Source: Eledone cirrhosa (taxonomy: Eukaryota). Taken from it: a DNA stretch of 64,000 bases. Below the pieces are notes generated by a model. That model ran no database searches. It was not told the origin of the DNA and saw only the letters and a program-made list of their open reading frames with translations. The position numbers and the translations under genes are program-made. Positions 6,104-63,512 of the stretch are shown piece after piece; position 1 is the first letter of the stretch; each line of letters starts with the position of its first letter. The stretch spans positions 215,202,001 to 215,266,000 of the forward strand of contig OZ024743.1 in the NCBI GenBank assembly GCA_964016885.1. Direction: 5' to 3'.

Positions 6104-6157
6104 TAATAGCTGACAATCGTTTCTTCCAAACTCTCGTTTGGATTCATCGGAGCATTA
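6104..6157 (-). ncRNA. Minimal type I hammerhead ribozyme, variant core (inverted arm copy)
   Basis: Reverse complement: taatgct CCGATGA atccaaac gaga gtttggaa GAAA cgattg TC agc tatta. Confidence 0.55.
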
Positions 6158-6391
6158 TCAATTTTTGCACATATAATTCACCTCCTATTACATGAACAAT
6201 AATATAGATACATATAAATTGATGTTGTGAGCAACAGTTTCGTATTTACAGGGTGGGATGGATGCACCATAACACTTATGTCGCATCCATCCCACCCTGT
6301 CAATACGAAACTCTTGCTCACAACATCAATTTATATGTATCTATATTATAGATCAGTTGAATAGGAGGTGTATTAAATGTGAAAACATTGA

Positions 6392-6445
6392 TAATGCTCC
6401 GATGATTCCAAACGAGAGTTTGGAAGAAACAATTGTCAGCTATTA
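6392..6445 (+). ncRNA. Minimal type I hammerhead ribozyme, variant core CCGAUGA
   Basis: taat-gct CCGATGA ttccaaac-gaga-gtttggaa GAAA caattg TC agc-t-atta: 8-bp stem II, palindromic stem III ACAATTGT, GUC triplet. Confidence 0.65.
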
Positions 6446-6622
6446 AATGATTTGAACACAACTTTGATAATTGTATAATTTATTGATTTAACTACGCTGT
6501 AAAACAACTGGTGTTCATACATTGAGCTATTTCCCTTACTGGTAATAAGGTTATTAAGAAATTACTGACCTTCCTGTTTGTCGTTGTTTATACTATATAC
6601 ATAACTACAAATAGTATTATTA

Positions 6623-7665
6623 ATATATATATATATATATATATATATATATATATATATATATATATATATATATATATATATATATATGTATGTATAT
6701 ATGTATATATATATATATATATATATATATATATATGTATATATGTATATATATATATATATATATATATGTATGTATATATGTATATATATATATATAT
6801 ATATATATATATATATATATATATATATATGTATGTATATATGTATATATATATATATATATATATATATATATATATATATATATGTATGTATATATGT
6901 ATATATATATATATATATATATATATATATATATATATATATATGTATGTATATATGTATATATATATATATATATATATATATATATATATATATATAT
7001 ATATGTATGTATATATGTATATATGTATATATATATATATATATATATATATATATATATATATGTATGTATATATGTATATATGTATATATGTATATAT
7101 ATATATATATATATATATATATATATATATGTATGTATATATGTATATATATGTATATATATATATATATATATATATATATATGTATGTATATATGTAT
7201 ATATATATATATATATATATATATATATATATATATATATATATATATGTATATATGTATATATATATATATGTATGTATATATGTATATATATATATAT
7301 ATATATATGTATATATATATGTATGTATATATGTATATATATATATATATGTATGTATGTATGTATGTATGTATGTATGTATGTATGTATGTATGTATAT
7401 ATGTATACATATATATATGTATGTATGTATGTATGTATATATATATATATATATATATATATGTATGTATATATGTATATATATATATATATATATGTAT
7501 ATATATGTATATATGTATATATATATGTATATGTATATATGTATGTGTATATGTATGTATATATGTATATATATATATATGTATATATATATATATATAT
7601 ATATATATATATATATATATATATATATATATATATATATATATATATATATACACACACACATA
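6623..7665. repeat. Compound (TA)n/(TATG)n microsatellite with higher-order periodicity
   Basis: About 1 kb of (TA)n punctuated by gtatgtatatatgt roughly every 55-80 nt. Confidence 0.95.
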
Positions 7666-7764
7666 TATATATACCAGCTTTTACAACAAGCATCACCTAT
7701 AGCAACAATAATTAACATTAGTAAAACAATAGCTATAAAGTTAACACCAATTAACTCCAGCTAA

Positions 7765-8030
7765 CCCTCAATGTGACGGTTTTGTTCTCGTCTGTCATCA
7801 TCAGCGTTACTATGCACCAGCTCATACTACTGGGAATACTCCCAATCTGATGCCAGTTACAGTAGACCACTTATATGACATCGGAAAACAAGTCTGGTAT
7901 GAAACTCATACGCCTGACCATCCAAACATGTTGACATGGTAAATTTCATAATGGATGTGGTGGCGGTGGTTTGACTCTTGGCTGTGAGTGAGCTGTTGTC
8001 AGGTAACAGCTGGCCCAACGTAAGTGCCAT
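7765..8030 (-). mobile_element. Degenerate Tx1/L1 ORF2 fragment
   Basis: Minus-strand frames give CLDGQAYEF and VVYCNWHQIGSIPSSMSWCIVTLMMTDENK, matching GLDGLPYE...AVYCNWQQNGRIPCSVTKGVVTLVRKDENK of the LINE at ~32170-32330. Confidence 0.6.
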
Positions 8031-60299: not shown

Positions 60300-60672
60300 A
60301 TAAATAAAAATAACAAGAGGCTGAACTGGTTTAAATCCTTGAAAGGTTTATTATACTATGATCATTTCAATGACCGGATACCATATGAATCCGGTGATAT
60401 CATCAGGTATTTGAAATATAACAAAGGAATATGTATATGTAAAAACCATGGGTCCGATAAATCAGAGACGGAGAGGACGACTGACCAACTAGCCGTCCTC
60501 TCTGTCTCTGATTTTTCGGACCCATGGATTTTACATATACCTATTCCTTTGTTATATTTCAAATACCTGATGATAACACCGGATTCATATGGAACCCGGT
60601 CATTAAAATTATGATAGTATAATAAACCTTTCAAGGATTTACACCATTCCAGCCTTCTGTAATTTTTATTTA
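60300..60672. mobile_element. Fold-back mini-element (~185-bp arms) with HHR in both arms
   Basis: Arms 60300-60482 and 60491-60672; unique tail to ~60815; TA-bounded. Confidence 0.8.
60353..60410 (-). ncRNA. Type I hammerhead ribozyme (damaged mirror copy at 60563-60620)
   Basis: Reverse complement: atac CTGATGA tatc-accggat...atccggt-catt GAAA tgatca TA gtat; palindromic stem III ATGATCAT. Confidence 0.7.
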
Positions 60673-61139
60673 TAATTAAATCCGTATTCGCACCACCGAC
60701 TACACAAACGAAGACGGGTGAACTGCATTACGTTGAGTACTCTCCACAATACTACACCATGATTGCCCATACGGAATGACCAAATCTATCCAGCAGGGAA
60801 CCAACAAACCTAAAGATATGTATATATATATATATATTCTATCAAAGTTCTTTCACTACACATCTGTGACATCATCAGTGGTACTATTATGTATCCACCC
60901 GTTGTATTGTAATGCCTTTGCCATTTTTATTTAATTTATATATATATATATGTATGTTATATATATATATATATATATATATATATATATATATATATAT
61001 ATATAGTGTGTGTGTGTGTGTCTGTGTGTATGCGTGTGTGTGTGTGCGTGTGTGTGTGTGTGTGTGTATATATATATATATATATATATGTATATACATA
61101 TCTATCTATATGTCTATCTTTATAGTTTATTGTTATTTA

Positions 61140-61232
61140 TTAATGTTAAAGTTATATGATTTTTATGTAAAACCCCCGCCGTCACGTCTTGTAATGCCCC
61201 ATTTTTGTACGCCCCTGTGGCAAATAAAGAAA
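61140..61232 (+). mobile_element. Tx1-like LINE extreme 3' fragment
   Basis: tgtaaaaccccc...gcccctgtggcaaataaagaaa followed by (TC)n, resembling the 3' ends at ~34480 and ~40970. Confidence 0.55.
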
Positions 61233-62639
61233 TCTCTCTCTCTCTCTCTCTCTCTCTCTCTCTCTCTCTATATATATATATATATATATATATATATATA
61301 TTATATATATATATTATATATATATATATATATTATATATATATATATATTATATATATATATATATATTATATATATATATATATATATATATATATAT
61401 ATATATATATATATATATATATATATATATATATATATATATATATATATATATATATATATATATATATATATATATATAAAGAATTGAAATACTAGAG
61501 TGTGTTGGAGTTAAACACCCTCTTCGTATTATAGAAATGACAGTAAATGTATAGCTCAATGTAATTAAACAGAGCCGAAGAATTATAGCTTTTCATTATA
61601 GCATTCATAATCTGTTGGCTACCATACCATTTCTATCTTCTTAAATATTATATTTTCACTATTAACACCTTATGAGTTTAAATCTGATTATATATTTTGT
61701 TTTATTTTATATTATTCTATTTTATTTTATTTGGATTCTTCTTTGGATAACTACCCCCCCCCCCACACACACACATACATACTTGTCACTCGCCCCTTCA
61801 AATATACTATAATTATATCCAATTCCCTTTTACGCTCCTTTCTATTGTATAATAAAGTATGTTGATTATGATTTTATGCTCTTTCATATCCTCCATACAT
61901 TTCTTTTTTCTGTCCCCATTGGCCTACCATAACTCTATTTAAAGTCTGTTTATTAGATAACGTTATTCAACTGATAGTTGAATATTTCATTTTTTCCAGA
62001 TACATTTTTATAGTGATATATTTAAATACTGGGATTTTGATTACTTAAACCATAGCTAATTTTGTATGGACTTATGTATTTTAAGTACTTTCAATATTAA
62101 TTACTTTAATAGGGTTTTCTAGTCATTTATCAGGGTTTGTTTCCTAAATTTTTTACTTAACTGCATGCGACACCTAAGTAAATACTTTTGTTTTTGCTTT
62201 TCGATTTCCGGTTGATTGTATTTATTTATATATACTACCGTGCGTAGTCTGTCTGTCTGGCTCTCATTCACTTATTCATAAATGTCTCTCCACCAACCAT
62301 GTAATTATGTATATTATACTATGTTCAATATGTTATATTGAAATTTTAATTCATTCCACTCTTTGTAAACCCGATTATTAAATGTACCATTATGTTATGT
62401 TAAATTCTGTAAATCCTGTAATATGTTTATATTTTTATAATTCTTGTAATGTTTGGATAATATTTATTTACACCAACTGTATAGAAATTTGAACTATTTT
62501 CTTGCAATCTGATCTATTTTCTTGGTTTTGATATTTTTCCAACATAATTTTTCCAATATAATTTAGTTCTGTACAATATTTTTTCTCACCCTGACTGTAA
62601 ATCTATATGATTTGTTAAGTTATATGCCATCATATTTTA

Positions 62640-62826
62640 ATTGTTACTACTTTAGGCACAAGGCCAGCAATTACCCAGTGCATTACTGGTACTTTATTTT
62701 ATCGACCCCGTAAGGATGAAAGGCAAAGTCAACCTCGGCGGGATTTGAACTCAGATCGTAAAGGGACGCAACTATGCTGGAAAGCATGACGTCCGACCCT
62801 CTACCAATACTGCCAATCTACCGCCC
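62640..62826 (-). mobile_element. Full-length SINE
   Basis: Reverse complement of the family consensus; flanked by a repeated atattttaat. Confidence 0.9.
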
Positions 62827-63467
62827 ATTATATTTTAATATTGTGATTTTAGTGTTATTGTAACATTTATATTTATGTGCAAATTAACCGGAGATTATCT
62901 ATTATATAATTATATAGTTTATTATATATTTTATGCTTACTTTTAATCATTTATTCTTCATTTTATACTGTAAATATTATATGTATTATATTTTAATTTT
63001 ATTTTCATTTGTATTTTTCATTTGTATTTTTCATTTGTATTTTTGTTTTTATTTTTATTATTATTATTATTATTTATATTTAAACTCTTAATAAGGGTTA
63101 GTTTGTGCTTCTATTGATGGAAATATGAATTGATAATATGTATATATGTGTACATGTGCATATATGTATATTGGGCCTTTTAACATTATTATTATTATCA
63201 TTATTAATTATATTATATTATATTATATTATATATAGTACAATAATTCCCGCTGTATATCACCACCTCTGTTTTAGCTCTTGTTTTTGCATTGGACTATA
63301 TTTGTAATATGGTTCAAAATGTTACTTACTTCCTTAGCAATTTGCACTTGATAATTTTTTACTTGATAATTTTTACCCGATTATTTTCCTATGATTTAAT
63401 CTATGTACACTCCATATTCTTCTGAGTTTTCGGCTTGCATTGGCTGATAGTGCTTCTTATAGCTTCA

Positions 63468-63512
63468 ATTGCCCTGATGAGTCCTTAATAGGACGAAACA
63501 TTGTTGGCTAAT
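63468..63512 (+). ncRNA. Minimal type I hammerhead ribozyme, canonical core
   Basis: att-gcc CTGATGA gtcct-taat-aggac GAAA catt G TT ggc-t-aat: 5-bp stem II with G10.1-C11.1, near-palindromic ACATTGT; ends a long AT-rich PLE-like UTR before (TA)n. Confidence 0.75.

Follow-up and report, generated by a model that had tools for sequence, protein, structure and literature searches.

Predicted dimer-type hammerheads of Penelope-like elements in a 64-kb stretch of the Eledone cirrhosa genome, and the question of a stem III dimerisation code

A 64-kb stretch of the Eledone cirrhosa genome (assembly GCA_964016885.1, contig OZ024743.1, positions 215,202,001 to 215,266,000; hereafter the window, in a genome of 3.0 Gb and 1796 contigs) carries a series of motifs resembling minimal hammerhead ribozymes, most of which have a short, self-complementary stem III whose sequence differs from one family to the next. 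This locus raises the question of what these palindromes are for, and in particular whether they act as a code by which only copies of the same family dimerise and process each other, as an earlier note on this DNA had proposed. We found 17 hammerhead instances, belonging to about eight families, within the window, and traced their families through the genome. The proposal was partly supported, in that the data argue for palindromes of the dimer type found in Penelope-like elements (PLEs) but not for a family code.

Hammerhead motifs in the window and across the genome

Read 5' to 3', the instances follow the type I order, consisting of the 5' strand of stem I, CUGANGA, a stem II hairpin, GAA, a stem III segment running from A to U (4-8 nt in the window instances), H17 and the 3' strand of stem I. 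The full core (CUGANGA...GAA...non-G17) is present in 13 of the 17 instances, and C occupies position 4 in four of them (6104, 6392, 47177 and 52549); three instances (48561, 52549 and 60841) are decayed. An extra unpaired base between A9 and 10.1 is present in family A (G) and in F5 (A), and absent from F1 and F2, while F3 and F6 show U.U in its stead. All nine sites quoted in the earlier note proved to be type I hammerhead folds, its coordinates being the low-coordinate ends of motifs on the stated or the opposite strand, and its eight stem III strings were all verified against the sequence. Copies beyond its list lie at 11482-11547(-) and 45375-45440(-), with a decayed one at 52549-52582(-).

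These hammerhead motifs are real, exceeding shuffled sequence at least 40-fold. Our strict descriptor specified CUGANGA, an optional extra base, a stem II of at least 3 pairs, GAA, an A..U segment of 4-10 nt, H and a stem I of at least 5 pairs, with no palindrome required. In the window it gave 8 matches, whereas 100 block-wise dinucleotide shuffles averaged 0.07 and never exceeded 1. In a genome sample of 100 evenly spaced 10-kb stretches (1 Mb in all) it gave 56 matches, or about 1 per 18 kb, compared with 1, 4, 0, 2 and 0 in five shuffles. Each of eight single-base changes to the core gave 1-5 matches in the same 1-Mb sample, which is the background level, with CCGANGA giving 4. Nothing but mismatches in stem I or II keeps five looser instances (48056, 48561, 60353, 45375 and 47177) from satisfying the strict descriptor; parsed by eye, these are recognisable as diverged members of the same families.

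The covariance model RF00163 (Hammerhead_1, clan CL00010), run in E-value mode, matched only the F1 copy at 63468-63512, with 29.1 bits against a cut-off of 34, but 18 F1 relatives elsewhere in the genome scored 34.4-37.8 bits with this model, above the cut-off. The model is ill-suited to forms with a long stem II or a minimal stem III. The Rfam output in E-value mode was dominated by microsatellite-driven look-alikes of miRNAs, which were disregarded.

The families are dispersed through the genome, and their copy numbers are given here as first-look candidate counts, which are lower bounds, except that the common family A motif and the fam0 and fam6 motifs were counted by pattern search. F2 has at least 2425 candidates (the 41 scored being 97-100% identical), F3 at least 1297, F6 at least 447, and F5 890, with 100% identity over 121 nt in 43 of the 49 listed matches; F1 is represented by the 18 genome matches above the Rfam cut-off, the flanks of which are conserved. 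For family A, one 23-mer was counted 15,866 times in the genome (reversed control, 0), and the 3' half of the TATTTTRT superfamily, which comprises fam0 and fam6, occurs 83,205 times (control, 67). Copies of F1, F2 and F3 are conserved over just about 150-400 nt. Within families, stem III is ACATTGT in 18 of 18 copies of F1, ACGATTGT in 33/35 of F2, ACTAGT in 41/43 of F3, ATGATCAT in 29/31 of F6 and AGAACT in 7/9 of family A. The F2 count indicates that the perfect palindrome ACAATTGT at 6392 is a product of CpG decay private to that copy.

Self-complementary stem III and the link to Penelope-like elements

When the 64 strict matches (56 from the random sample and 8 from the window) were clustered with stem III ignored, 18 families were obtained, and in 13 of them the majority stem III was fully self-complementary, G.U pairs being allowed. 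The expected number was 1.88, and none of 200,000 simulations reached 13 (maximum 9); the null was empirical, drawn from all genomic GAA-A..U-H strings of equal lengths, and replaced a composition-only null since (TA)n is abundant in this genome, the result being upheld. At positions past the second base pair, which would otherwise lie in a hairpin loop, 25 of 29 were paired, compared with 11.2 expected. At the first 100 superfamily sites (of 83,205), the tetramer at the centre of stem III was GCGC in 36, ATAT in 30, ATGT in 26 and something else in 8, so that by hand count 96 were self-complementary in this tetramer, although these represent mostly three founder forms and not independent events. 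The claims that stem III is self-complementary and mostly too weak to stand alone were thus borne out, the latter by the folding of monomers, since stem III was absent from every minimum free energy (MFE) fold, and a stem III of 4 or 6 nt cannot make a hairpin. With RNAcofold, the MFE dimer was a double hammerhead for two of the nine motifs folded, 6104(-) and the fam6 copy 42718(-), the latter with a gain of 12.1 kcal/mol. The self-complementarity of stem III fits the signature of the published dimer, or double-hammerhead, mode of cleavage.

The link to PLEs is seen most directly in family A, the array of which consists of an inverted copy (12428-15659) adjoining an upstream pseudo-long terminal repeat (pseudo-LTR; 15660-16371), followed by two tandem copies of the open reading frame (ORF), with a hammerhead in each pseudo-LTR, tandem spacings of 4268 and 4302 nt, and (TA)n on both flanks. 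This layout matches the PLE insertion arrangement drawn in the portion of Craig et al. 2021 (PMC8557442) available to us, and so supports the link. Over all loci, the end of a GIY-YIG ORF lies about 200 nt upstream of 29 of 53 family A motifs. Matches in tblastn connect the ORFs of PLE families A and B with one another and with 17507-20128(+), 21775-24430(+) and 52963-54723(-). In the two PLE B tails, the F5 motif lies 377 and 381 nt past the ORF, and 33 of its 34 bases are identical between them, compared with 81% of the aligned tail. Both family A and F5 keep a constant spacing behind an RT/GIY-YIG ORF. Most copies besides those of family A are short stubs with no ORF, and F1, F2 and F3 may be either heavily 5'-truncated PLE ends or riders that lack an ORF of their own.

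A close counterpart is found in the minimal hammerheads of metazoan PLEs. According to the sections of Cervera & de la Peña 2014 at hand (PMC4209133), these lie in pLTRs, have a palindromic helix III and form many consensus families per genome; an extra base may follow A9, hammerhead pairs occur on opposite strands, and in the assays single motifs were inactive but dimeric and trimeric constructs were weakly active. Three reviews (PMC6765202, PMC7761336 and PMC6466107) agree, in their relevant passages, that PLE minimal hammerheads cleave only as dimers. The Eledone motifs share with those described in the same sections of PMC4209133 the type I order, a long helix II, a short helix I, palindromic 15.2-16.2 with loop 3, the extra base after A9 (here in family A and F5), many consensus families per genome with thousands of dispersed copies, opposite-strand pairs 100-700 bp apart, and tandem copies at a spacing of about 3-4 kb around an ORF for reverse transcriptase (RT) and GIY-YIG. 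Set against those sections, they differ in nothing in kind; the family sequences are different, two families have C4, and F3, F6 and F2 have U.U or U-A in place of G10.1-C11.1. The PLE variants of Lünse, Weinberg & Breaker 2017, as summarised in extracts of two of the reviews (PMC6765202 and PMC6466107), have a short palindromic stem III loop and need a second copy, preferably in tandem. They resemble ours in the short palindromic stem III, but cleavage was measured there and is predicted here.

Other hammerhead carriers are less close. In the parts of Cervera & de la Peña 2020 consulted (PMC7229834), metazoan non-LTR retrozymes are tandem repeats of 150-450 bp with canonical type I hammerheads. 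The F1 copy at 63468 is similar to these in its canonical 4-bp helix II and weak helix III, and the U.U at the base of helix II in F3 and F6 has a parallel in the axolotl retrozyme motif shown there. A retrozyme reading of F1 was nevertheless rejected for the window, in which no head-to-tail hammerhead array of 150-450 bp was found; one tandem hammerhead pair of 210 nt was present in the random genome sample (L166).

The double hammerheads of avocado sunblotch viroid (ASBVd) and newt satellite 2, reportedly described by Forster and co-workers in 1988, are said to arise from two unstable single hammerheads that merge their stems III. The same merging is predicted for the Eledone motifs, whereas the carriers are viroid or satellite multimers in the former and retrotransposons in the latter, and the copies in Eledone, unlike those multimers, are mostly solitary or in inverted pairs.

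We consider it probable, at roughly 0.85, that the motifs are hammerheads residing in the pseudo-LTRs and truncated 3' ends of many PLE families, in which a short self-complementary stem III is predicted to allow cutting only as a double hammerhead, as published. The stems III of two copies would pair, either on one read-through tandem transcript or between two transcripts; each copy would then supply its cleavage-site strand and the 3' strand of its stem I to the catalytic core of its partner, and cleavage would free a unit-length RNA. The palindromes would be family-specific through descent of the whole motif under a symmetry constraint, and not as a selected password, and most genomic copies may be dead stubs released from constraint.

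Several observations weigh against this explanation. Curated Rfam models at the gathering score gave no match in the window. In the dimer folding, the MFE structure of seven of the nine motifs was a trivial extended duplex, an outcome that is uninformative because hairpins extend to duplexes, and in 5 of the 18 families stem III is not fully self-complementary. The poorest stem III is that of family A (AGAACU), in which 4 of 6 positions are paired and the duplex has a predicted energy of +1.4 kcal/mol; this is the family with the best link to an intact-looking PLE, and it has at least 15,866 copies. A PLE ORF was found beside none of 18 F1 loci, none of 32 F2 loci and, in non-adjacent positions, 2 of 31 F3 loci, which leaves the architecture of these motifs as the evidence for their PLE origin. 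Moreover, among 14 same-family neighbour pairs within 6 kb at the random loci and in the window, ten were divergent inverted, three tandem (two of them in the window) and one convergent, and with tandem same-strand partners this rare, few copies would be able to dimerise in cis. Finally, two young families, F2 and F5, have a C4 core, a form reported to have low activity in vitro; according to the excerpted text of PMC3088659, U4C lowers activity considerably in vitro, yet it is viable in a viroid.

Stem III as a dimerisation code and other explanations

The palindromes could instead be a selected code, kept distinct so that co-resident families avoid processing or poisoning each other's transcripts. 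The earlier note had framed them in this way as self-recognition keys, by which only tandem copies of one family would process each other, and of its two premises each held in the main but not throughout. Stem III was mostly conserved within the five families counted above, but the AGGCATA subfamily of the TATTTTRT superfamily contains both ATATATAT and ATATGTAT forms (4 and 5 copies, respectively), and since the copies are young, conservation within families says little. Stem III was also distinct in most families, but ATATATAT is shared by fam0 and the unrelated fam7, which has different stems I and II. This is one palindrome collision among eight 8-nt stems, compared with 0.44 expected (28/64, for random draws from 64 palindromes), so that the collision rate is that of random expectation. 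When 21 family representatives were compared (210 pairs), 11 pairs were cross-compatible in stem III, 9 in stem I and one in both, the last involving a doubtful singleton. In the two MFE double hammerheads, 7 and 8 stem I bases are paired to the partner; an intermolecular stem III in a nested dimer makes stem I intermolecular as well, and hence part of any address. Stem I is thus swapped too and discriminates equally well, and with divergence in either helix orthogonality comes free. Stem III in the superfamily (52 matches) was ATATATAT in 18, ATGCGCAT in 14, ATATGTAT in 14 and a singleton in 6, and the ATATATAT and ATATGTAT subfamilies have a common stem I and could cross-pair through G.U. 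Within the superfamily conservation is higher in stem I than in stem III, unlike what diversifying selection would produce. The sole pattern that fits a code, and a single case, is the split between fam6 and fam0, in which GCGC and ATAT/ATGT forms have a common stem I but are set apart by four symmetric changes to stem III, so that stem III alone would decide between partners. The restriction to tandem copies found no support, tandem partners making up 3 of the 14 neighbour pairs, and our literature searches found no published proposal or test of a family-specific hammerhead palindrome code. On this evidence a selected code is unlikely. An elaboration of it is similarly improbable, namely that stems I and III form a two-part address barring cross-processing among at least 20 PLE families and that the GCGC->ATAT switch in the TATTTTRT superfamily was selected, founding a lineage that has ceased to dimerise with the parental one.

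It is also conceivable that the motifs work as monomers aided by a protein or chaperone, or that they are inactive passengers of PLEs, with the symmetry of stem III stemming from another constraint, for instance a DNA palindrome or a protein-binding one. The very low in vitro rates published even for dimers (in the available sections of PMC4209133) would suit this, as would the statements, in the part of Craig et al. at hand (PMC8557442), that PLE clades lacking canonical hammerheads proliferate well and that hammerheads may parasitise PLEs; the poor palindrome of family A and the C4 cores of two young families point the same way. However, the symmetry always begins at A15.1/U16.1 while its sequence and length (4 to 10 nt) vary by family, which fits RNA pairing, and the G.U pairs needed for symmetry in ATATGTAT and ACGATTGT are sensible only at the RNA level, so that we regard monomers or passengers as even less likely than a code. 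As for the reading that the motifs match a loose consensus by chance, the DNA being AT-rich and repetitive, the lack of an Rfam match at the gathering score in the window and the modest excess of the bare core heptamer there (17 vs 7.46 in shuffles, about 2.3-fold) could be taken in its favour, but the full descriptor outnumbers the shuffles in both the window (8 vs 0.07) and the genome (56 vs 0-4 per Mb), altered cores fall to background, and the stems covary among families while the core stays constant. Chance is refuted by the shuffles and retains practically no probability.

Features of the window and their significance

The hammerhead instances and the coding remnants of the window are collected in the table below.

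Table. Hammerhead instances and retroelement features, in coordinates of the window
Feature	Position	Strand	Description
F2 hammerhead	6104..6157	-	core CCGAUGA (C at position 4), stem III ACGATTGT; divergent inverted partner of 6392
F2 hammerhead	6392..6445	+	core CCGAUGA, stem III ACAATTGT, CpG-to-CpA variant private to this copy
fam0 hammerhead	11482..11547	-	stem I TATTTTGT, core CUGAGGA, stem III ATATATAT
Family A hammerhead	12587..12631	-	CUGAAGA with extra G, stem III AGAACT; in pseudo-LTR of inverted PLE copy
PLE family A ORFs	12936..15693	-	RT 13588-15693, GIY-YIG 12936-13700; Pfam RVT_1 E 2.4e-4, GIY-YIG E 1.5e-4, both slightly below curated cut-offs
Family A hammerhead	16168..16212	+	in upstream pseudo-LTR of tandem array
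PLE family A open frame, 1272 codons	16313..20131	+	low-complexity N-terminal part, then RT and GIY-YIG; tblastn 17507-20128
Family A hammerhead	20436..20480	+	between both tandem PLE copies; 4268 nt past preceding copy
Family A hammerhead	24738..24782	+	array end beside (TA)n; 4302 nt beyond the 20436 copy
Exo_endo_phos (non-LTR retrotransposon piece)	30776-31663		Pfam
zf-RVT (non-LTR retrotransposon piece)	33553-34230		Pfam
F3 hammerhead	41775..41817	-	ACGAUG / CUGACGA / U-AGCU-AAUA-AGCU-U / GAA / ACUAGU / A / CAUCGU
fam6 hammerhead	42718..42788	-	stem I TATTTTAT/ATAAAATA, long stem II, stem III ATGCGCAT
fam0 hammerhead	45375..45440	-	core CUGAGGA, stem III ATATATAT
PLE family B ORF remnant	45515..46801	+	Pfam RVT_1 53.8 bits, GIY-YIG 23.9 bits, both above cut-off
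F5 minimal hammerhead	47177..47212	+	CCGAAGA with extra A, G10.1-C11.1, stem III AAUU, stem I of 3 pairs; 377 nt past PLE B ORF
fam0 hammerhead	48056..48121	+	stem III ATATATAT, mismatched stem II
Decayed relative of fam0 superfamily	48561..48630	-	stem II GGACGUA..., stem III ATATATAT; stem I 3' strand minus one base
Decayed F5-like motif	52549..52582	-	381 nt past second PLE B-like ORF remnant (52963-54723, -)
F6 hammerhead	60353..60410	-	stem I of 4 bp, U.U at 10.1-11.1, stem III ATGATCAT
Decayed family A relative	60841..60882	-	CUGAUGA, AGAACT retained, stems I and II damaged
F1 canonical-looking type I hammerhead	63468..63512	+	stem II GUCC/GGAC, stem III ACAUUGU, GUU site

Some features of the motifs deserve mention in their own right. 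The usual G10.1-C11.1 pair is replaced by U.U in F3 (41775-41817(-)) and F6 (60353-60410(-)). The CCGA core, with C4, is found in two unrelated, very young, high-copy families, namely the F2 superfamily and F5, the tail motif of PLE B, and the F2 superfamily retains C4 in three or more subfamilies with differing N7, loop II and H17. A poly(A)-signal hexamer (AATAAA/ATTAAA) begins 0-6 nt past the predicted cleavage site, within the 3' strand of stem I, in 4 of the 18 census families as well as in F2 and F6. Of the 64 motif matches, 19 have such a hexamer, whereas it occurs in 4 of 64 upstream controls and in 4% of random 25-mers; in the window it lies 3' of the cleavage site at 63502-63512, 6440-6450, 48114-48125 and 60353-60360.

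With respect to arrangement, divergent (5'-to-5') pairs of the same family, 70-2200 nt apart, represent a known PLE pattern with an inverted 5'-truncated copy. One divergent pair of the fam6 type elsewhere in the genome (G000:C1:733285-733304(-)/733429-733448(+)) has GCGT in one copy and ACGC in the other, each one change from GCGC. The RNAs of this pair would match each other perfectly whereas homodimers would not, but this is a single case and, by a rough estimate, a coincidence of about 1 in 20.

In the family A array (12428-25000), which lies between (TA)n tracts at about 11950-12434 and 24959-26550, the arms are 99-100% identical over 500-2061 nt, and may result either from a very recent insertion or duplication or from collapse or expansion in the assembly. 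The first part of the PLE A frame (16313-17500) contains about 350 A/C-rich low-complexity codons (ACAACAACA...) ahead of the RT; searched as a whole, the 1272-codon frame gave no Pfam domain, but the RT part scored on its own. Between 28800 and 40600, a GC-richer block (44-53% GC) contains pieces of non-LTR retrotransposons and three partly repeated segments at a spacing of 3.0-3.9 kb.

The hammerheads of this locus belong to a known kind of element, the dimer-type hammerheads of PLEs. The genome of Eledone cirrhosa is saturated with hammerheads of the Penelope type, nearly all of which are overlooked by curated Rfam models, and beyond annotation this has little import. From the sequence, there is no reason to favour a code over descent with a symmetry constraint. 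Because stem I must be swapped whenever stem III is intermolecular, dimerisation specificity would reside in two helices and not in one. The genome itself holds natural test pairs, in which a common stem I is combined with different palindromes, or a common palindrome with different stems I. A code, if true, would give retroelements a self/non-self rule of a new kind.

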